A stretch of DNA of 64,000 nucleotides from a virus, in IMG/VR virus record IMGVR_UViG_3300037245_001077, positions 1 through 64,000 of that record. One strand, 5' to 3'. Below are positions 1 through 36,679 of this stretch, one piece after another. A model generated the notes under the pieces. The model saw nothing but the letters and a program-made list of their open reading frames with translations, did no database searches and had not been told where the DNA came from. How positions within the stretch are numbered: the stretch's first letter is position 1; each line of letters begins with the position of its first letter. The position numbers were made by a program, and so were the translations under genes.

Positions 1-175
1 TGATTATTGTCAGACATCCCTGAACGAGGGCATAGATGTTACGACTGAGGAGTTTGAACGGGAGATGGAAGACGCCATTAATCCAATAGACCCTGATAAC
101 CCGGACACCGTGATGTACTACCACTATGGTGTTGGGGATGGACCTCGACGAAAGGATGGGAGCCTCAGTGGGTAA
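1..175 (+). CDS. 3' end of a hypothetical protein (partial, frame 2)
   Basis: Frame 2 is open from base 2 (DYCQTSLNEG...KDGSLSG) to TAA at 173-175 and overlaps the helicase start. Confidence 0.6.
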   Translation, partial: DYCQTSLNEGIDVTTEEFEREMEDAINPIDPDNPDTVMYYHYGVGDGPRRKDGSLSG

Positions 176-1556
176 TAACCTACAAACCTTCACCCCAGAG
201 TTCAAGCGAGATTGTCTTGCTTTTTTACTTAAAGATCAAGTAGCGGCCAAAGCGCTTATATCGGACATGCCTTCCGATCTATTTGATTACGATCCGGAAT
301 TTAATATTATATTCGTGGGGTTGCAGGAATTTTTCAATAAATACAACTGCCGACCAAGAAGACATGAACTCGTTGACTACATCAACGATGTCTGTAATGA
401 TGAGGGGTACGATACCGCTCGACGTAAGGCTATCCTCGCAGCTTTGAATGAGGTGTGGGACTGGGACCAGTATAGCCCTCCTTACGTCAAGGACAAGCTC
501 TACCCTTCGGTTACTGCTCACAACATACTCAAGGTGGCTAGGCAGATCGAGGAGTACGTAGACGAGGGTGACTTTGACGGGTTGGTTGAGGCTATGTCCG
601 CTGCCCGTTCGACAGGGACAGAAGAGCCTGAGCTTACTGAATACTGGACGGACACTGACGAGCGTATCAAACGGAGAGGTGTACGAACTGTACAAAACGT
701 ACCAACTGGGTTTCCTGTGCTGGATGGCTTCATCAATGGGGGGTTGCCTCGGGGGTCTCTTGCAATGATCCAGGGGCATTCGGGCTTAGGCAAGTCTGCG
801 TTGATGACACAGATAGCTCGGAAAGCATCCCTGGCTGGTTATACTACTGCGTACCTTTCTCTTGAATTAGACTCTGATGCTGTTATGGACAGGTATGATG
901 CAGCCCTGTCAAATATTGCTCTCCAAAATCTTGTGCATAAAGGCCCGGAAGTTAGGAGAGGAGTGAAAGAAGCATACGTTTCGGCAGGGGTTACTCCTGC
1001 TCGGTTGTATGTACAGTACTACCCCACTAAGAGTATCTCTCTTACTCAGGTCTCTGACTATGTTGACCGTTTGAGGGAGGAGAAGGGTGTGACCTTGGAC
1101 CTTCTCGTGGTGGACTACTTCGATCTCCTCAAGATGGAAGGTAACTACACCAAGAAGTATGAAGCTCTGGAGGAGAACTGTGAGATGATGCGAGGGTTAG
1201 CGGGGAAGTACAGCATGGCCCTGTGGACAGCCACGCAGACCAATCGAGGAGGAGTGAGCAAGGAGACGGTGGGAATGGATGATATTGCCAGTGGTTTCGG
1301 CAAGGTATTCCCTCTGGATCTCTTGGTGACCATGTCCCAGACGGAGAAGGAGAAGAAGAACCCGGCATCGGAGGTTCTTCGTCTTACCCTTGCTAAGTCC
1401 AGGCTTGGTCCCTCTAATGAGACAATATACATCGTACCCAACTTCGCAAAGATGCAGTTCAAAGATTATGACGAGAGGGAAGCTGGCCGTAAGAACCTTA
1501 TTGTTAAGGGTATCAAAAAGAAGCAGCCGAAGAAGCTCGGGAGCTTTGGTCCATAA
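168..1556 (+). CDS. dnaB: DnaB-like (SF4) replicative helicase
   Basis: PTGF..LD...GG, Walker A GHSGLGKS, YLSLEL, Walker B LLVVDYFD, TATQTNR, KSRLG. The ORF is open from 126; the GTG at 168 has a GGAG RBS. Confidence 0.93.
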   Translation: MGNNLQTFTPEFKRDCLAFLLKDQVAAKALISDMPSDLFDYDPEFNIIFVGLQEFFNKYNCRPRRHELVDYINDVCNDEGYDTARRKAILAALNEVWDWDQYSPPYVKDKLYPSVTAHNILKVARQIEEYVDEGDFDGLVEAMSAARSTGTEEPELTEYWTDTDERIKRRGVRTVQNVPTGFPVLDGFINGGLPRGSLAMIQGHSGLGKSALMTQIARKASLAGYTTAYLSLELDSDAVMDRYDAALSNIALQNLVHKGPEVRRGVKEAYVSAGVTPARLYVQYYPTKSISLTQVSDYVDRLREEKGVTLDLLVVDYFDLLKMEGNYTKKYEALEENCEMMRGLAGKYSMALWTATQTNRGGVSKETVGMDDIASGFGKVFPLDLLVTMSQTEKEKKNPASEVLRLTLAKSRLGPSNETIYIVPNFAKMQFKDYDEREAGRKNLIVKGIKKKQPKKLGSFGP

Positions 1557-27637: not shown

Positions 27638-30600
27638 ACATGGACAAGTTGAGCATGGACGTTCCCGAGGAGCGGGAAGCACTCCAACAGGCATTTGAGC
27701 AGATCATTGAAACCATTCAGGATCATCCTGACCAGATCATATTGGTCCCTGGCACCAACGCCAAGACTAACGAGGACGTGGCAGCTTTTGCTATTGAGCA
27801 GGATGGCCAGATCATGCCGTTCGCCGTGTTCGTTATGCCGGGGGATATCGTCCCTCGTAAGAGCAGGACGCAGAAGGAGATCGAGGAACGGGAGAAGGAT
27901 AAAGAGTTCGTTCTCCCCGAGGACGCCAGAGCGGATGAGTATATTGCTCCTCTTAGCTTGGATGATTTCGAGGATGACGACCCGGAGGTGGACTGATGCC
28001 TAAGGTTAACTTTCCTCACAGTATGCACGATTTGCCTGAGCCTGAGTTCTCAGAGGTATTCAACCGCACCATCATTGACCAACAGTGTCACGATTGCCAA
28101 TGGTTCATCCCTGAGCGTAGGCTGTGCGGGTTTAATGTTGATTCCGAGTCAGGAGATACGCTAGACCTACTTTATGAACATGACGAGGGTCAGGTGGTTC
28201 CTCTTGAGGACTGTGTTGCTTGGGTCCATACTGATCACGTGGTTCCAAAGGTAGACAATGAGTAGTCCGTTTTCAACGGAATATCTTGAGGAAGAAATCG
28301 CGTTCTACAACCCACAACTCTATGAAAAGGATGGAGTTAAACTCATTCTTAAACCCATCAAGGGAGCTTGCCGGATCGACGAATACCTCAACGTGATGTT
28401 GTGGACCGAGGGTCCGGATATCCCGGTACTTATGTTCAATGATACCCTCTGGATGTCGCTCACCTGGATGGAAGTTCAATCCTTTTGGGTAGCCCGTCAA
28501 GAGTTCGAGGGTGTCGTATTGATGGGTGGTTTGGGCATGGGCTACGCTGCGCTTCGGCTCGCAGCTAAACCGGAGGTGGAGAAAGTAGTTGTATACGAAA
28601 TCGATTCACGGGTAATCGAGTTCTTTGAGGAGACCCAGAAGGGCCGCCCGGAAATGGATAAGATCGAGATTAGGGTCGGTGACGTGCATGAAGCCGAGGG
28701 CAAGTACGACTACGCTTTTATCGACATTTACGCTACCCTACTTCCTGATGAGTTACGCGAGGACGCACAGTTCTTCCTTCACGATGCCTCTGAAAAGCTG
28801 GAGGTAGGTCAGTGGTGTTTTTGGGGCCAGGAGGCGATCTGGTTTAATATGCTGGAACGTGGGGAAAGCCCTAACATTACGCGGGTTGAGTCGGTATTCT
28901 TTGGTTTGTTTTCTGACTATGAACACTCTAACCTTAAACCCCCGATGGGGGATGGGAATACTGAGTTCAGTGAGGAAGTACACTATCTCTTGAGAGGAGA
29001 CACGTTATGAATCCTTACACTGAGGAATTGGTGGATGCTTTGATTACTCTGGAGGCTCATGGCAAAACTTTCCGGGTGTGGCTTAACGACTCGGATAGCT
29101 TCGGGAGGCATGAGCAGCTTGGAGATGCCAGGGAAGAGTGGGTGATTGCTAATAACAAGGTAGCGAAATTGGTTCCGAAATTTTGGGCTGAGCAAGAGAA
29201 ACTTATGGGTGAGGCACCAATAGATGTGAGTGCTTTGGATGAGGTAATGTTGTGAGCGAGTATATAGTTCGCCGGACAAACTTATATTACTCTCTATTCG
29301 CCCGGATAACCTAGGAGGCTGGCTAATGGCTAAGCGGAAAATCATAGTGGAAACCCTTACGCACTATATATTTAGGCACCAAATGGAGGATGGTACAATT
29401 TACGAAGGAACCTTGAAAATCAACGGAGATTATAATACTGCTGAGGTGGATAACATAAAGTCTAATAAGAATGCTGGTGGCGAGGCGTGGGATTGGGCGC
29501 AAAGAAGCTGGCCGGAGTTTATCAAGGAGGAGGGTCCGTCTATTACCGTGGACCTTGGTGACGGCGAGACTTTGATCATCCCTTCTACTCTTAGGTGGGC
29601 GTGCGTGTCGGGCGTGTACGATATGAAAATGAATCATCTACCTATACAGGAAGTTAATTATAGTACCGCTAGGAACACGGGGTACGCCAAGGCCCAGAAG
29701 GAGAAGCGGGGTAAAACTACCCCCAAATTCAAAGCGGTGCCTCCTTTCTTTGCGCAGGATAAACCAGAATCCACACCCCGTAGGGGTGTGGGTGTAAGAA
29801 AGACCACCATTATTCAGCCGGATAAGGTTACCAAGAAGAGCCAGCGGAAGCTCAGCGCAGTCGAGAAATTGACGCAAGGTACTGATGTTGAAGCGGTTAA
29901 GCAGAAGAATATCCAGAAGGCGATGTTGGAGGAAAATTGATGACGAGAACTGATCGTATCGGCTATGGTGTAACCCGTTTATTTTTGGTAACAATATCTG
30001 CCATACTATTTACCAATGCTCCGCTTGCAGGGAGTTTTTGGTGGTCCTTTTTTATGAACTTTTCGGCTATAGGGGTATTGAGCTTCGGTGTATTCAAAAT
30101 GGTAGGAGTGGAGGATTGAATGAAAGATATACCAGAGGTTAAGGAGGATTGGGTCGAACCAACCCTTACGCCAGAACAAGAAGCGTTGTATATGACTCGT
30201 CTTGGTACGCGGTGTCCAGTTTGTAAAACTACAAGGATAGAGCATGTTTATCCTGCATGGCATCCAGATCAGCACCGACATCTTCTTACTCGTGAGGGCC
30301 GGTGTGGGGAATGCGAGACGATATGGCATGATACCTATACTTTGTCCAGTATAGAATTGATACCAGAAGAAGATTCTGGATGGGGAGGAGATGGTGGCTA
30401 ATACGATGGTTACGTTTACGGTGCAGGGTTTCATTGAGCATGAAGATTGGGATGATCAAGATGAGAGCAAGGATTTTGAGGAGAAATTGGCGACAATGAC
30501 CAAACAGCTAGGGCAGTTTGGAACTGTACAGCTAGAGAGTATGGAGTATGAGTAATGTCTGAGACAGTTACAGTTACAGTTAACCAATTGGCAAAATTGA

Positions 30601-31413
30601 AGCTGTATATTGAGCAGGCCCGAAAGTTTTTACTTCATGAGAATAATGCTGTTAGGGCTTTCACATATGTTGAAGAAGCGCAAAAAGTGATGAGGGAGAT
30701 CGAGGAGACGGGGGGGAAATGGTTAGACTAATGGCATACTTTAGAACTACTTATGTGTTCGAGGTGTTGAGTGAGGAGCCGATGCCTGATCCTATAGGGC
30801 TGGAGGAATTACGTTACCAGACTTATGAGGGTCATTGTTCTGGTTTGTTTGTGGATACTAAAAAAGAGGAATTGACTGAGGTGGAGATGACCGCTGCGTG
30901 CCACGAGCACGGGACTGATCCCGGTTTCTTTATGATTGGAGTATGCGAGGAATGTGATGAGGAAGATTGCCCTGGTTTGATCGTTTGCCCTCAGTGTAAT
31001 ATTGAGGAGCACGGAATCGCAGCAGCAACTCACGTCGAGGACCATGGTTATTGCCGCGAATGTCTACGGAAGTGGCAGGAAGGGGACGAGAATGCCTGAG
31101 TACAAAATCTCGGTTATTAGAGCTGATGACCTAGGAAAAGAACCCAAAATAAAAACGAGCTTTGAAGAAGATGTGGAGGAGATCGAGGAACTGTTCAGGG
31201 AGTGTGGCCTGGACGAACTACTGGATGACGAAGATGCCTAAGCCGACCCATGAGCAGATCAAGAAGGTTGCAGAAGCTCTTTCTGATGCCTTGTTTAATG
31301 ATTGGGAAGAACTCTGTAATTTCGTACAGTCTTCATTAGAATATCAGTATGATGATGAGGAGGGTATGCGGAACTTCCTAGAGGATTGGAAAGATTATGT
31401 GGAGAAGGAATGA
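27634..31413 (+). other. array of small hypothetical CDSs (27634-27996, 27996-28265, 29007-29255, 29326-29940, 29937-30119, 30120-30401, 30391-30555, 30555-30731, 30731-31099, 31092-31241, 31234-31413)
   Basis: Coupled + strand ORFs with RBS. Confidence 0.65.
28258..29010 (+). CDS. class I SAM-dependent methyltransferase-like (spermidine-synthase-like) protein
   Basis: VLMGGLGMGY, VYEID, GD, YDYAFIDIY. Confidence 0.75.
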   Translation: MSSPFSTEYLEEEIAFYNPQLYEKDGVKLILKPIKGACRIDEYLNVMLWTEGPDIPVLMFNDTLWMSLTWMEVQSFWVARQEFEGVVLMGGLGMGYAALRLAAKPEVEKVVVYEIDSRVIEFFEETQKGRPEMDKIEIRVGDVHEAEGKYDYAFIDIYATLLPDELREDAQFFLHDASEKLEVGQWCFWGQEAIWFNMLERGESPNITRVESVFFGLFSDYEHSNLKPPMGDGNTEFSEEVHYLLRGDTL

Positions 31414-31706
31414 GCGACTTCCCAAACTACCCGTGCGTCGGCTGTGGTTATTGCTGCCGAAAAGCTCAGTGTGGGTGGAGCGTGTGCCAGCACGGATTCG
31501 TTGACCCTTGCCCAGAGTTGTACCCAGTTGGATCCCAGTGGAGGTGTAAGGCGGCGAATAACCTCGAACTTGAAGAAGCAGTTGGGATCGGAACTGGTTG
31601 TTGCTCTCCGATGAACTCTGACAGAGGGGCCGCCACTGTTACCTTGACACAAGTAATAGCTGATGTTAACCTAGAGTCTGATAGGAGTAATCAGGCGGGT
31701 GGCTAA
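31410..31706 (+). CDS. Cys-cluster (CxxCxxCC, YkgJ-like) putative Zn/Fe-S protein
   Basis: CVGCGYCC...CPEL...WRCK...GCCSP; overlaps the start of the UDG-exo gene. Confidence 0.65.
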   Translation: MSDFPNYPCVGCGYCCRKAQCGWSVCQHGFVDPCPELYPVGSQWRCKAANNLELEEAVGIGTGCCSPMNSDRGAATVTLTQVIADVNLESDRSNQAGG

Positions 31707-32931
31707 ACTCTACAATCGAAGCTGTACACTTTGTCCCTATCATTCTAACGATGGAATTACGTGTATATCTGGGGCCGGGAATATCAAAAATCCTGCAATT
31801 ATGGTAGTAGGAGACTCCCCTGGGTACCAAGAAGCTATGCAGGGAAAGCCCTACGGTGATCAACAAGGGCAACTGATTTCTGAGGCACTACAGGAAGTAG
31901 GAATCGAGACGGGCCGGGACGGAGAGGTATACGCTACGTATGCTGTTAAGTGCTTTCCCTCCGGCAAAGTGAAAATCAAGAACGCCAGAACGTGTGCAGA
32001 AAATTATCTACTGAAGGAGATCGTCAAATTTAAGCCTGACCTTATCCTAGCTCTGGGAAAGACCTCCCAGATCGTGCTGCTGAGTAATACTGCGCCCCTG
32101 TCCAAGACCCATGGTAAAATATTCGAGGCGAAATTCGAGTTAGAGGATGAGGTTTTCGAGACGAAGGTCATGCCTATCGAGCACCCATTCAGTGTGTTGC
32201 AATCCCCTGCTAAACTAGATCCATGGTTGTCTGATTTGCGGCGTGCAAAAGCTGTATTTTATGGGGAAGGAAACCCCTACTGGTCGGAGGATAAGCTCTC
32301 CCGATTCAATTTCCAAGTGATCAAGTCTGAGCGTCATTTCAAAGAGGTGGCGAGATATCTAACCGGTAAGTACAAGGGTAGCTGTCTCTCAATAGACATC
32401 GAGGCGTCTGGGCTTGATGACGCTATTCTCCGTGATGAGTTTAAGGTGTATTGCGTTCAGTTCGGGATTGTGGATTTAGAGGATCGTGTTGAGAATGAAC
32501 GACTTCCGGTATATGTTCTCCCCATCCAGTCTGAGCAGTTCGCTGTGTGCTCTGACTCTATGTGGGTGGATAAGTGTAGGTTTCTGCTTAATAATTTCTT
32601 CAGCGAGCGGTATTTCCGACTCGTCGGTCACAATCTGAAGTACGACCTTAAGGGGCTGCGTAGGCTAGGCGTGTCTGCTTATGGCCATTGGGACACCATG
32701 ATGCTCTGGGCCAACACGCATGGTGAAGCTCCGATGTCATTGAAGGAAATCGCTTATCAGGTGTCAGATTTAGGTGGTTATGAAGAAAAGATGGTTGAGT
32801 ATTTTGAAGAACATGGGACTTACGACGCGCCGGAAGAGATCTTAGTTACGTATAGTGCTCTGGATATTGTGGTTACGCGGTTGTTGATGTACGATATGAA
32901 TCAAGGTATTCTACAGGAGGTAAAGAAATGA
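31699..32931 (+). CDS. family-4 uracil-DNA glycosylase-like domain fused to a 3'-5' exonuclease (N-terminal half of a split PolA)
   Basis: CTLC, VVGDSPG, AVKCFP, HP (UDG4-like); ExoI SIDIEASG, ExoII GHNLKYD, ExoIII YSALD. Confidence 0.9.
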   Translation: MAKLYNRSCTLCPYHSNDGITCISGAGNIKNPAIMVVGDSPGYQEAMQGKPYGDQQGQLISEALQEVGIETGRDGEVYATYAVKCFPSGKVKIKNARTCAENYLLKEIVKFKPDLILALGKTSQIVLLSNTAPLSKTHGKIFEAKFELEDEVFETKVMPIEHPFSVLQSPAKLDPWLSDLRRAKAVFYGEGNPYWSEDKLSRFNFQVIKSERHFKEVARYLTGKYKGSCLSIDIEASGLDDAILRDEFKVYCVQFGIVDLEDRVENERLPVYVLPIQSEQFAVCSDSMWVDKCRFLLNNFFSERYFRLVGHNLKYDLKGLRRLGVSAYGHWDTMMLWANTHGEAPMSLKEIAYQVSDLGGYEEKMVEYFEEHGTYDAPEEILVTYSALDIVVTRLLMYDMNQGILQEVKK

Positions 32932-33377
32932 ATGAGAAAGAAATGAGTGAGTATGAAGAAGAGGTTCAGGGGATAATCAATCGTGAGTTGCTGATTCGGT
33001 TGCTTTATCTGTCTGTTCAGTTCGGGCTGATCTGGGGCACTATCAGGTTTATCATGATTGGTAACTCTCTTGCGGGTCTCACCTGCTTCTTAGGGTTCCT
33101 GGGTCTTGGGGTTCTTATTATGTCTAAGCTTGCTCTTAATCTTCTCTCTCGTTTGAATGTGCTGGTGGAAGTAGGGGTGAAACGTTCTTTCTTTGATAAG
33201 ACGCTGGGCCGACCGAATCCTGGGCAAATTGATCGTCTACTTCGATGTGAGTGTGATGAGTGTCAGGAAATGCGTGACCGTTTTGAGTTACCTAACCGTA
33301 TAGATTTAAACTCTCTGCTTACTGAGATGGAAGAAGAGGATGATGCACAAATGGAGAAGAAGTTGACGGAGCATTAG
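32928..33377 (+). CDS. two-TM membrane protein with CxCxxC, lying between the polymerase halves
   Basis: AGGAGG RBS; hydrophobic segments around aa 21-73; RCECDEC. Confidence 0.75.
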   Translation: MNEKEMSEYEEEVQGIINRELLIRLLYLSVQFGLIWGTIRFIMIGNSLAGLTCFLGFLGLGVLIMSKLALNLLSRLNVLVEVGVKRSFFDKTLGRPNPGQIDRLLRCECDECQEMRDRFELPNRIDLNSLLTEMEEEDDAQMEKKLTEH

Positions 33378-34853
33378 ATGGCAGGATTTTATAGCTTTGC
33401 GGAAGGCGGCTCTCCACGCTGGTTGTGTGACTACCAACGTCAACTCTTGAACGCCTTTGTGGATATAGAAATGACGGGATTTCCGTTCTCTCCTGTGGTC
33501 CACCAACAGTTCATTGGTAATGCCAAGAGGATCTACACCGATTACGAAAATCGTTTGCGGAGCAACAAGGATTTCCAAAGGTACTGTCAGCTCAACGATA
33601 TCCCAACTGCTCCCGATGATAAGAAGCGATTTAACTTTGGGTCGCCCACCCAGCTCCGTGAGTTCCTTTTTGCAGGCCAACTTCAAGGAGGCCAAGAGTT
33701 AGAGGCTATCAAGGTGAGTAAGGCTACAGGGGCAGCCAGTACTGACCGGGAATCGTTAGAGCATTTTGCGGAGGAAGGCAATGAGTTCTGCGCTGATCTC
33801 CTCGTCATCCGTAACTTCGGCAAGCTCCTGAGTTCGTTTGGTGAACCGCTCCTGTCCTTTTACTCTACGCGCACGGGGGCGTTGCACCCCACGTATTTTT
33901 TGGCGAAGGTGATTGATGGAACCGGGGTAGCCGGTGGTACACATACGGGGCGTCTTAGCTGTAAGCACCCGAACATGCAGCAGATCCCTAAACGAGACAA
34001 GGATGAGGAGGGGATAGGTTTAGCTGGTGTAGATGTACGGCGGTCATTCGTACCGATCCCAGGTCATTTACTTGTCGAGGTAGATCAGAGTCAGGTCGAG
34101 GTCAGGGTCGCAGGCATGTATTCGTTAGATCAGAAAATGGGAGAGTTCTTCAAGGCCGGTGGAGATTTCCATACTCGTGTAGCCAGTCAGGTGTTCAAGC
34201 AGGATTTCGACGAGCTTACACTTATCCTCAAAGATAAGGACCATACCGATTATTCAGTGGCTAAGAAGTATAGGTCCGCAGCTAAGACATTTACGTTCGG
34301 GCTTATGTTTGGTATGGGCCTCGGGAAGCTCACACGACAGAGTGGGTTGACTGATGAGGAGGGAGAAGCGTTCATGGAGGAGTACTTCAATACCTTCCCT
34401 GAGTTCGCACGGTGGCGAGAGGGCATGATCGAGTGGGCTAAGGAGGAGGGCTATGTCACTACCCTCTTTGGTCGTAGGCGCATGATTAAGATTTCTGGGT
34501 ATGCTACAGACGACGGTAGAGAGGAGAGAATAGGGGTCAACACTCCAATTCAGTCAGCGGCAGCAGATATTACATTGTACGGATTGTCGAGGGTTTGGCA
34601 GTTTATAACAGAGAATAAACTGGAAACCAGAATTCTTGGAACAGTTCACGATAGTATAATATTTTCGATGCCACCTGCCGAGGTGAACGAGATACTGCCG
34701 AGGATAGCTCAGATGATGATTCGTCCTCCGAATCTGGAGTGGCTCCTTGATGAGGTGCCGGTGCCGCTATCTGTAGGAGTAGACATCGGAGAAAATTTTC
34801 GAGATATGAAAGAAGTTTCACTTGACAATGTACTAGCGGGAAGGATTATTTGA
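33378..34853 (+). CDS. polA: family A DNA polymerase, polymerase domain only
   Basis: TGRLSCKHPNMQQIP, motif A DQSQVEVR, DFH, motif B RSAAKTFTFGLMFG, NTPIQSAAAD, motif C VHDS; has its own GGAG RBS. Confidence 0.95.
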   Translation: MAGFYSFAEGGSPRWLCDYQRQLLNAFVDIEMTGFPFSPVVHQQFIGNAKRIYTDYENRLRSNKDFQRYCQLNDIPTAPDDKKRFNFGSPTQLREFLFAGQLQGGQELEAIKVSKATGAASTDRESLEHFAEEGNEFCADLLVIRNFGKLLSSFGEPLLSFYSTRTGALHPTYFLAKVIDGTGVAGGTHTGRLSCKHPNMQQIPKRDKDEEGIGLAGVDVRRSFVPIPGHLLVEVDQSQVEVRVAGMYSLDQKMGEFFKAGGDFHTRVASQVFKQDFDELTLILKDKDHTDYSVAKKYRSAAKTFTFGLMFGMGLGKLTRQSGLTDEEGEAFMEEYFNTFPEFARWREGMIEWAKEEGYVTTLFGRRRMIKISGYATDDGREERIGVNTPIQSAAADITLYGLSRVWQFITENKLETRILGTVHDSIIFSMPPAEVNEILPRIAQMMIRPPNLEWLLDEVPVPLSVGVDIGENFRDMKEVSLDNVLAGRII

Positions 34854-35131
34854 TGGCACAGCGACACACGAAAGTTACCCGGAGACCAGGGCGGAAAAAA
34901 TGCTCCAGTAAGGCTAAGCAGCAGAATAACCATAGGAGGCAGAAGAACTGGTTGCGGCATGAGTACACTCGGAAGTTAGCTCGGAAATTGTCAAAGATGG
35001 CTACTCTTATTGACAAAGGTGAGTACCAAGGGATTGCGAATAGTCCTCTGCTCCATTTGAATTGGGATTATGTGATCAAGAGATCCCTGCTAGCAAATTC
35101 ATCTTGGAAGAAGTCCCTACAAAAGAGTTGA
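34850..35131 (+). CDS. small basic hypothetical protein
   Basis: Coupled ORF with a K/R-rich N-terminus. Confidence 0.55.
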   Translation: MMAQRHTKVTRRPGRKKCSSKAKQQNNHRRQKNWLRHEYTRKLARKLSKMATLIDKGEYQGIANSPLLHLNWDYVIKRSLLANSSWKKSLQKS

Positions 35132-35156
35132 CATTATCAACCACATCGTGTACGTT
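35128..35156 (+). promoter_or_regulatory. sigma70-type promoter
   Basis: TTGACA-17 nt-TACGTT. Confidence 0.6.
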
Positions 35157-35197
35157 GTATAAGAGGGCGACAATATAATGACTGTTTGGAGGTATCA

Positions 35198-36679
35198 ATG
35201 AAACGGGTTTTATCAATTTGGTTTGTGTTAATTTTAGTGGTTGTGGGCTTTGGGTATACGGAGACATCCGACTACCCAGGTCAACGTGCTATGAGGCGAG
35301 TTCCTGTTGAGGGAGCTTCTAGTTGTGGCGTTACTCCGTTATATGCGGGGCAAGATACTCAGGTTGGTTATGCCCAGGTGACTTGGTTGCCGGATGTGGT
35401 TAAGATCACCTATACCATCGATCAACCAGGCTGGCATATGACCACAGGCTACGTGGGCTGGTGGTATCCTGATGAGGAGCTTCCCCCAAAAGCAATTCCC
35501 GGTTGTGGTGCTAATAAAACTAATTGCGTTGGTACTGAGCAGCCAGATTCCCCAACAAGTCATACGTTTACGATTGATCGTAGCCTAGTTGATCCTGCTT
35601 GTATTTTTGCTATCCATGCTGATGTTATTGGCCCTTGTGGTGAACAGAAGACGCAGAAGATAGCGTACTACGATGGCTTTACTTTCCCCGACGAAGTGTT
35701 GATGAGAGTGTTTAATGTCGGGGCGCGTTCCTATTTCAGAGTCCAAATTGATGGTGACGGTGTAAGTGGCTCCGGGTATAATGGCTGGTGCTTGGATAAG
35801 CAACAAGATATCACGCCTGGTTACTGGTACAGAGCAAACGTTATCCAAGAGTGGGCTGATCTTGCATATCTTCTTGATGATCCCGAACATGACCTACCTC
35901 TGATTGAGTGGATTGTGAAAGAGCGTATGGTTGGTCGAATTATCATTAACGATGTGATTGTCACGCGAAGGCATGTACAGAATGCCATTTGGTATATCCT
36001 AGGGGATATTAAAAATACTGGTTCCGTAGCAAGGTCCATTGCGGACGCTGCTGAAGATGCTGTTTATGCCATGGCTTTTGAGTACGGCTCAACTACTAAA
36101 GACTACGAGCGTGGTTGTTGGAAATGGGCCGGGATGATAGTTCTCGATCCTATGTTTGATGCCCCATGGTCAGGTGGTGAGGCTCATGCTCAGCCTATCC
36201 TGGTTCCTATCATGCACCAGATCCCGTGTGAAACACCTACTCCTACTGAGACGCCTACCCTTACTCCTACTCCACCCCGCAGAACAAGGACTGCAACTGC
36301 TACTGTTACGAACACCCCCACGTCTACTAGCACTCCTACAGCTACAGACACTCCCACGGTAACTAATACTCCCACAAAGACTCAGACACCTACAGGCACA
36401 CGCACACCTACGACAACGGCAACCGTGACCCGTACTCAGACACCTACGAGCACTAGCACTCCTACGAGCACTCAGACGCCTACGAGCACTCGAACATCTA
36501 CGGATACGCCTACGCATACCTCCACACCTACTCAGACGGCTACGTGGACGTTTACGCCTACGCAGACGGCTACCTTTACTCCTACTCCTCCCCCAATGTG
36601 TGGGGAGACAGCATGGGCGTTTGGTCAGTATCCCTTTACTCAATCCTGGGGTTGGTTCTATGAATGTTGTCCTGAATAA
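35198..36679 (+). CDS. exported protein with thioester-domain-like motifs and a Pro/Thr stalk
   Basis: GGAGGT RBS and hydrophobic N-terminus; GWCLD, VQNAIW, AQPIL; about 120 aa of TPT repeats; LYAGQ...ETAWA flanking domain. Confidence 0.8.

Follow-up and report, generated by a model that had tools for sequence, protein, structure and literature searches.

Organization of the Split Polymerase Locus

In the window analyzed here, which comprises positions 1 to 64,000 of a 176,533-bp IMG/VR virus record (IMGVR_UViG_3300037245_001077) that derives from an uncultured phage and is estimated to be 81% complete, three open reading frames (ORFs) are arranged head to tail on the plus strand between positions 31699 and 34853 (Table 1). 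The first codes for a protein in which a domain related to the uracil-DNA glycosylases of family 4 (UDGs) precedes a 3'-5' exonuclease (exo) domain, and the third codes for the polymerase (pol) domain of a family A DNA polymerase (PolA). The 446 bp that separate these two genes (32932-33377) are filled by the second ORF, referred to here as the slot gene, whose product has two transmembrane (TM) segments and a CxCxxC motif. The coordinates, a hydropathy scan, and an AlphaFold2 model agree on this layout with an earlier reading of the same DNA (the original prediction), which had also described the two junctions exactly: an ATGA stop/start overlap between the exonuclease gene and the slot gene, and an in-frame CAT TAG ATG between the slot gene and the polymerase gene. 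The ATGA overlap is likewise found in the related loci L003, L004, L005, and L006, and nucleotides 33368..33377, which run from the GGAG sequence to the TAG codon, are retained in L003, L004, and L005, including L004 with its shifted slot-gene frame. Since all three ORFs are conserved in relatives, their arrangement has not arisen by chance.

Table 1. Features of the split polymerase locus. Nucleotide (nt) positions are those of the window; amino acid (aa) positions are those of the respective protein.
Feature	Position (nt)	Position (aa)	Strand	Remarks
UDG-exonuclease gene	31699..32931		+	GTG start; 410 aa
Family-4 UDG-like domain		~7-186 of 410	+	PF03167; 1UI0 match
DEDDy 3'-5' exonuclease domain		~225-400 of 410	+	PF01612; Exo motifs
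AGGAGG, Shine-Dalgarno sequence of slot gene	32915..32920		+	within final codons of exonuclease gene; read from sequence
ATGA overlap, UDG-exonuclease gene/slot gene	32928-32931		+	read from sequence
Slot gene	32928..33377		+	149 aa
TM1 of slot protein	32988-33056	~21-43	+	hydropathy scan, AlphaFold2
TM2 of slot protein	33063-33149	~46-74	+	hydropathy scan, AlphaFold2
CxCxxC of slot protein	33246-33263	107-112	+	invariant in family
GGAG, Shine-Dalgarno sequence of polymerase gene	33368-33371		+	within final codons of slot gene
CAT TAG ATG, slot gene/polymerase gene	33372-33380		+	read from sequence
TAG stop codon of slot gene	33375-33377		+	immediately 5' of polymerase ATG
Polymerase gene	33378..34853		+	491 aa
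Polymerase motif A, DQSQVEVR	34083-34106	236-243	+	invariant, 14 clade members
Polymerase motif B, RSAAKTFTFGLMFGMG	34272-34319	299-314	+	invariant, 14 clade members
Polymerase motif C, HDS (VHDS)	34647-34655	424-426	+	invariant, 14 clade members

The Two Halves of the Polymerase

The polymerase ORF matches the Pfam family PF00476 (DNA_pol_A; E-value 4.1e-78) from position 28 to position 380 of the 381-position model and represents an entire PolA polymerase domain, comprising thumb, palm, and fingers. It possesses the motifs A (DxSQxExR), B (RxxxKxxxFGxxYG-like), and C (HD[ES]) of family A DNA polymerases, and the Taq and Klenow structures match it with E-values of about 1e-41. As originally predicted, the ORF begins just before the thumb, with the sequence LLNAFVDIEMTG at residues 23-34. 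In the upstream ORF, Pfam recognizes a UDG domain (PF03167, residues 25-176, 1.1e-18) and an exonuclease domain (PF01612, residues 294-400, 2.9e-07; 30.9 bits against a cut-off of 23.6). The three signatures of a DEDDy-type 3'-5' proofreading exonuclease (DxE, Nx2-3[FY]D, and Yx3D) are all present, and the corresponding motifs ExoI (DIE), ExoII (HNLKYD), and ExoIII (YSALD) are kept in 12 of 12 exonuclease genes of the clade of split polymerases and in its fused outgroup. ExoIII (Y385-D389) sits 21 amino acids before the stop codon, close to the approximately 20 that had been estimated. The UDG domain is matched by the family-4 UDG of T. thermophilus (1UI0; E-value 1e-15) with the CxxC, VKC, and TC elements aligned; by its fold and by the four cysteines of the [4Fe-4S] cluster, which are retained and are conserved throughout the split clade, it belongs to family 4.

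The PHROG model of the single-chain polymerase (phrog_17) is matched by the UDG-exonuclease ORF over positions 477-825 and by the polymerase ORF over positions 839-1237. We detected no family B or family C polymerase and no second PolA in the 176-kb record; the split PolA is therefore the only recognizable DNA polymerase of this phage. Judged by their sequences, both polymerase halves look functional.

Inheritance and Origin of the Split

A search of 5.8 billion proteins for relatives of the polymerase subunit yielded about 30 metagenomic clusters of pol-only proteins of roughly 490-500 amino acids with 54-90% identity, and single-chain exo-pol or UDG-exo-pol proteins occur only at 41% identity or below. 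Every related contig with sufficient flanking sequence carries a separate UDG-exonuclease gene (for about 410-440 amino acids) directly upstream of pol, and the same split is present in independent assemblies from IMG/VR, JGI, ENA, Logan, and NCBI. In trees of the polymerase domain, the split clade is monophyletic (support 0.93), and its sister group is formed by the single-chain proteins P0114 and P0038. The latter had been a candidate for a split member placed among the fused outgroup. This candidate was rejected, since the presence of ExoIII at the N-terminus and a contig end 5 nucleotides upstream identify P0038 as a truncated single-chain gene.

P0114 (L014:4001-6634), the nearest single-chain relative, comprises 877 amino acids and shares 41% identity; as in the window, CobT/VWA genes are located upstream of it. 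The exonuclease subunit of the window aligns to residues 1-395 of P0114 and the polymerase subunit to residues 401-864. Since P0114 is colinear over both subunits, the cut maps to the short linker that follows the final exonuclease helix, with no loss of sequence. Both polymerase halves are under strong purifying selection, with ratios of nonsynonymous to synonymous substitution rates (dN/dS) of 0.09-0.14. P0114 itself has lost the UDG motif A, the histidine of motif B, and one of the Fe-S cysteines, all of which the split clade retains; it is therefore the fused form that has the more degenerate UDG domain.

Introns or inteins are frequent in phage polA genes, and one member of the split clade (P0113) has an intein within its polymerase domain. 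The two halves might accordingly be rejoined by a group I or group II intron, by a split or ordinary intein, or by frameshifting or bypass, or the split might reflect an assembly error or a pseudogene. Yet an E-value-mode Rfam scan of positions 31000-35500 returned no intron or other RNA family, even at E <= 1, and no intein, Hint, or homing-endonuclease domain is present in the three ORFs of the window or in any slot ORF of its relatives, which gave no Pfam or PHROG domain of any kind. These results bear out the earlier statement that neither a nuclease motif nor non-coding space for an intron is visible, and they leave the split without the features of a group I or group II intron or of an intein with a homing endonuclease. 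Among the relatives, the distance between exo and pol varies from -29 to +663 nucleotides and all three relative reading frames occur, which rules out a common frameshift or bypass; in L022 the two genes even overlap. The original prediction had allowed for a mis-assembly, but the split recurs in the independent JGI, ENA, Logan, and NCBI assemblies, and the purifying selection acting on both halves likewise argues against an assembly error or a pseudogene. We consider it very unlikely that the halves are rejoined or that the split is spurious.

The locus shows what a naturally split exo|pol PolA should show: adjacent genes on the same strand, each with its own start and stop, a clade-wide distribution, and a colinear single-chain outgroup. 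On this comparative evidence, a genuine gene fission took place at the exo/pol linker and has been inherited. The original prediction, by regarding phage polA interruptions as usually introns or inteins, had overlooked the published exo|pol fissions of LUZ24-like and S-SBP1-like phages.

Inteins were found elsewhere in this lineage. The 909-residue P0113, a polymerase subunit of the split clade, carries an intein (PF14890) inside the polymerase domain, and P0159 (1167 amino acids), a more distant single-chain UDG-PolA, contains Hint and intein domains. Inteins thus invade this polymerase lineage, though not at the exo/pol cut. In a relative found on an NCBI contig of a metagenome-assembled genome, the split polymerase is followed at a distance of about 2 kb by a gene for an IS110-type transposase (PF02371, weak match; L009:6766-7608 and L010:7068-7910).

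A Variable Slot Between the Halves

What lies between the two polymerase genes varies within the split clade. L022 has no slot, its exo and pol genes overlapping by 29 nucleotides; L001 and L002 have 100 nucleotides of non-coding DNA; unrelated ORFs are found in L008 (68 amino acids), L009 (65 amino acids), and L023 (132 amino acids), and three small ORFs in L011; L019 carries a gene for a 156-residue two-TM protein without the cysteine motif. Members of the two-TM CxCxxC family occupy the slot in the window and in L003, L004, L005, L006/7, L015/16, L017, and L018. In the polymerase tree, a single crown subclade (support 0.98) holds every two-TM slot gene; lineages at the base of the split clade are without the gene, and no remnants of it were found in the other slots. 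Since the two-TM genes are limited to this crown subclade, the polymerase was not split by the membrane gene, contrary to the original prediction: the basal slots are empty, overlapping, or differently filled. The most parsimonious order of events is that fission came first and that the membrane gene was gained later, in a single event. Of the conservation expected in relatives, that of the split holds throughout the clade, but the middle gene is absent from most lineages.

In L022 (L022:1-651), the exonuclease subunit possesses an extra acidic C-terminal tail with an aromatic end (…EEIDDLDDLLFT). This tail resembles the acidic tails by which phage single-stranded DNA-binding proteins (SSBs) and helicases bind their polymerases.

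The slot protein of the window consists of an acidic N-terminus, a helical hairpin, the CxCxxC segment, and an acidic C-terminal tail. AlphaFold2 models the hairpin (residues ~21-75) with a predicted local distance difference test (pLDDT) score of about 85; the C-terminal part is poorly defined. The flank on the C-terminal side of TM2 is net positive, and by the positive-inside rule the charge distribution suggests an N-in/C-in topology with the cysteine motif in the cytoplasm. Neither Pfam nor PHROG contains a match to the protein. No matches came from a tblastn search of 50,697 phage records or from a pattern scan of IMG/VR, the neighbors of the protein in the ESM Atlas were all sub-threshold and unrelated, and the phage genome contains no paralogue of the gene. 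Relatives surfaced only in large protein collections, and a profile search found only four clusters among 1.84 billion representative proteins. The two hydrophobic helices, an invariant CxCxxC, and the acidic tail recur in homologues with 88%, 64%, and 62% identity and in those that are more distant. From these conserved homologues and from dN/dS values of 0.19-0.35, it follows that the slot gene is a real gene. Its rate of evolution is 2-5 times that of the polymerase halves (dN 0.063 vs. 0.024-0.030, and 0.226 vs. 0.041-0.045), and in the L006 pair the slot protein has 24% identity compared with 60-70% for the polymerase.

Two assignments of slot proteins were considered and set aside. The 156-residue protein of L019 could not be confirmed as a homologue, with an hhalign probability of 1.4% and no detectable similarity; only the position of its gene and the tree, in which L019 is sister to L006, suggest kinship with the two-TM family. 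A class II (two-TM) holin would have two TM segments and a charged tail, as does the protein of the window, and would be encoded beside an endolysin in a lysis cassette; the slot gene, however, is part of a replication operon, with predicted translational coupling to the polymerase, and no lysis gene is adjacent.

Translational Coupling and the TAG Codon

Only the TAG separates the slot gene from pol in the window, L003, and L005, where the two share a reading frame (TAG ATG); the frame is also shared in L017, with TAA and then GTG. The original prediction had raised the possibility that read-through of the TAG codon produces a membrane-anchored polymerase, which would be a fusion protein of about 640 amino acids. 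However, slot gene and pol lie in different frames in L004 (TGA and a spacer of 10 nucleotides), L015 (TAG and 1 nucleotide), and L006 (35-nucleotide overlap), and the loci do not all use the same stop codon (TAG, TAA, or TGA). TAG is an ordinary stop in this phage, ending 44 of the 178 long ORFs of the genome (25%), and ARAGORN found no suppressor tRNA and no CTA anticodon among the 27 phage tRNAs of the 176-kb record; the phage uses the standard genetic code. Moreover, the GGAG sequence is rightly spaced for independent or re-initiated translation of pol. The signs of stop-codon recoding are absent, read-through is not conserved among the loci, and a read-through fusion strikes us as extremely improbable. 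Compact translational coupling, in which the end of the slot gene contains the GGAG of pol, is a better explanation for the abutment of TAG and ATG.

A Probable Two-Subunit Polymerase With a Putative Membrane Passenger Gained Later

We consider it quite probable that the locus encodes a fission-derived two-subunit PolA to which a membrane passenger was added later. An ancestral single-chain UDG-exo-pol family A polymerase was cut in the linker that joins the final helix of the exonuclease to the first helix of the polymerase, and the phage would now make two proteins, a UDG-like and proofreading subunit and a synthesis subunit. Most likely, these subunits dock non-covalently and rebuild the usual three-domain enzyme, which would serve as the replicative polymerase. 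The natural two-subunit PolA that had been proposed thus stands as far as the clade-wide two-gene split is concerned; that the subunits form a heterodimer is most likely in view of the conservation of both halves and by analogy with the published model of the S-SBP1 enzyme. The stop/start overlaps and the Shine-Dalgarno sequences inside the preceding genes should couple translation. The space opened by the fission became an insertion slot, into which one crown sub-lineage took up a small gene for a putative N-in/C-in membrane hairpin with a cytoplasmic three-cysteine motif and an acidic tail. In this phage, the slot gene may also bring ribosomes to the start of pol (GGAG...TAG ATG). We read its product as a probable lineage-specific early membrane passenger with a host-directed role, for example in superinfection exclusion or host takeover. 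Because of its fast evolution and its absence from most lineages of the split clade, the slot gene is not a general polymerase subunit.

Several observations weigh against this reading. In the UDG domain, motif A reads GDSPG, with an aspartate replacing the usual glutamate of GE[AG]PG, and the uracil-contacting asparagine before VKC is replaced by tyrosine in all clade members but one. Because of these two replacements, glycosylase activity of the first subunit is uncertain; the histidine of motif B ([ED]HPF) is retained. As to the slot protein, its family is known only from the exo/pol slot, in seven independent contexts, each member with a readable context lying there, and all two-TM slot proteins have the acidic C-terminal tail. 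Such fidelity to the slot exceeds what a random passenger needs and leaves room for a functional link to the polymerase.

This link could take the form of the membrane tether that had originally been suggested, with the slot protein as a third component of the system: through its cysteine motif and acidic tail, it would anchor the split polymerase at the cell membrane or regulate it there. In addition to the exclusive position and the invariably acidic tails, the predicted translational coupling of the slot gene to both neighbors and the cytoplasmic location predicted for the C-terminal part from the net-positive flank of TM2 would fit a tether, and the membrane proteins of phi29 can organize phage replication (PMC4974454). 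When the slot protein and pol were modelled by AlphaFold2 as one chain (TAG read as glutamine; alignment A5, consisting of in-frame relatives and pol-only proteins), pol reached a pLDDT of about 90 and the cysteine segment rose from ~58 to ~70, but the hairpin dropped; the change is small, the alignment differed, and neither readable contacts nor a predicted aligned error were returned. Against a tether speaks that most lineages of the split clade do not have the gene, despite the same conserved C-terminus of exo and N-terminus of pol. Moreover, the slot protein diverges far faster than the polymerase, and L019 has lost the cysteine motif. A tether is unlikely to be general, most of the clade needs none, and anchoring or regulation of the polymerase by the slot protein is in our view improbable. 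A dedicated membrane partner of the sub-lineage, whose three-cysteine motif and acidic tail would dock pol, UDG-exo, or the gp32-like SSB and thereby localize or gate replication at the inner membrane, likewise seems doubtful. The passenger reading is the one that we retain, and the slot-restricted two-TM family with its three cysteines is the most interesting element that remains.

Genomic Neighborhood

The split polymerase is part of a co-directional and tightly packed replication operon, in which genes for a gp32-like SSB, UvsX, and SbcCD follow the polymerase genes. A scan for promoters and terminators found sites that were no more numerous than in shuffled sequence, and Pfam searches with the neighboring small ORFs gave no match above the cut-off. 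An ORF for a cysteine-rich protein of 106 amino acids (CVGCGYCCRKAQC…; about 11 cysteines) at positions 31386-31706 of the window overlaps the start of the UDG-exonuclease gene by 8 nucleotides. It has no Pfam match and may encode a metal- or Fe-S-binding protein that is co-translated with the Fe-S-containing UDG domain. Further upstream (30120-30401), an ORF of 93 amino acids with CxxC pairs has a sub-threshold match to recombination endonuclease VII (PF02945, E-value 0.0035; 17.6 bits against a cut-off of 23.6). Past the end of the window, at positions 73018-81468 of the record, ARAGORN located the 27 tRNA genes together with a tmRNA gene (73196-73536; tag peptide DEFEQLPLAA) within 8.5 kb.

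Comparison With Known Split and Single-Chain Polymerases

The locus represents an independent exo|pol fission, in a lineage whose polymerase carries a UDG domain; this domain has stayed on the exonuclease subunit. Since exo|pol fission has already been published for other phages, the current understanding of these enzymes is unchanged. Split PolAs show where such an enzyme tolerates cutting, and that the proofreading/repair and synthesis modules can be made as separate subunits, which is of practical interest for polymerase engineering. For genome annotation, they are a reminder that pol-only genes may be misread as coding for exonuclease-deficient enzymes. The slot, for its part, is a clean natural hot spot of gene insertion, and the clade-restricted membrane family found in it is a defined candidate for experiments.

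In the T7-like cyanophages of the S-SBP1 type, an exo|pol gene fission was reported by Czernecki et al. (2023, NAR, PMC10201439), who described it as the first of its kind among PolAs, and AlphaFold predicts that the complex is preserved and that the new termini are solvent-exposed (PMC10201439). The locus of the window shares with them an origin by gene fission, rather than by an intron or a programmed frameshift. However, the S-SBP1-like enzymes belong to the T7-like cluster 5 and have no UDG, and their genes overlap by a few bases after a 1-nucleotide frameshift, whereas the first subunit of the window includes a UDG-like domain of family 4, and a gene-collecting slot of up to ~660 nucleotides has opened at the cut. 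In the LUZ24-like Pseudomonas phages, a "DNA polymerase part I" (3'-5' exonuclease, 171 amino acids) and a "part II" (PF00476, 546 amino acids) have long been annotated (PMC3890496). These cultured phages also have separate exo and pol genes with small unrelated ORFs between them, the first of which codes for a small membrane protein. They differ in that they have no UDG, in that about ten ORFs (~2 kb) separate the halves, and in that they are podoviruses of ~45 kb as compared with phages of ~170 kb. Their intervening genes were not directly compared with the two-TM CxCxxC family, the searches for which matched only the slot of the clade studied here.

Single-chain UDG-PolAs are known from the N4-like cluster 17, the SPO1/SP-10 type, and the SP15-like phages YerA41 and phiLo (PMC10201439; PMC13697223), and PDB 9QHS, an enzyme of this kind, was among our structure matches. 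In these polymerases the UDG packs against both the exo and the pol domain, and recent structures by cryo-EM show that it acts on the template ahead of the active site (PMC10201439; PMC13697223). The order of family-4 UDG, 3'-5' exonuclease, and polymerase is the same in the window, as are the Fe-S cysteines and the motif B histidine of the active SPO1/SP15-like type. In contrast to these single polypeptides, the polymerase of the window is a separate chain, and the UDG motif A of the split clade reads GD[SAG]P instead of GE[AG]PG, with tyrosine in place of the asparagine. No homologue of the thymidylate-synthase-like proteins ThyA and ThyX, which might indicate thymine replacement or modification, was detected in the 81%-complete record.

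The OM43 phages MEP401 and MEP402 encode PolA in two ORFs with a small ORF between them, for which the authors found no homology (PMC10580990). They resemble the window in having a split phage PolA with one small, function-unassigned ORF in the gap; their cut, however, lies inside the polymerase domain, as ORF13 comprises the exonuclease and the N-terminal part of PF00476. As for the membrane protein, p1 and p16.7 of phi29 organize viral DNA replication at the membrane (PMC4974454) and are likewise small early membrane proteins encoded among replication genes, a likeness of function for which we claim no homology. Phage phi29 replicates by a protein-primed family B system, to whose terminal protein and single-stranded DNA p16.7 binds. 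These two proteins are the only well-studied model of what a tether would look like, and the two-TM slot protein, if it were indeed a tether, would serve to attach a PolA-type phage replisome to the membrane.

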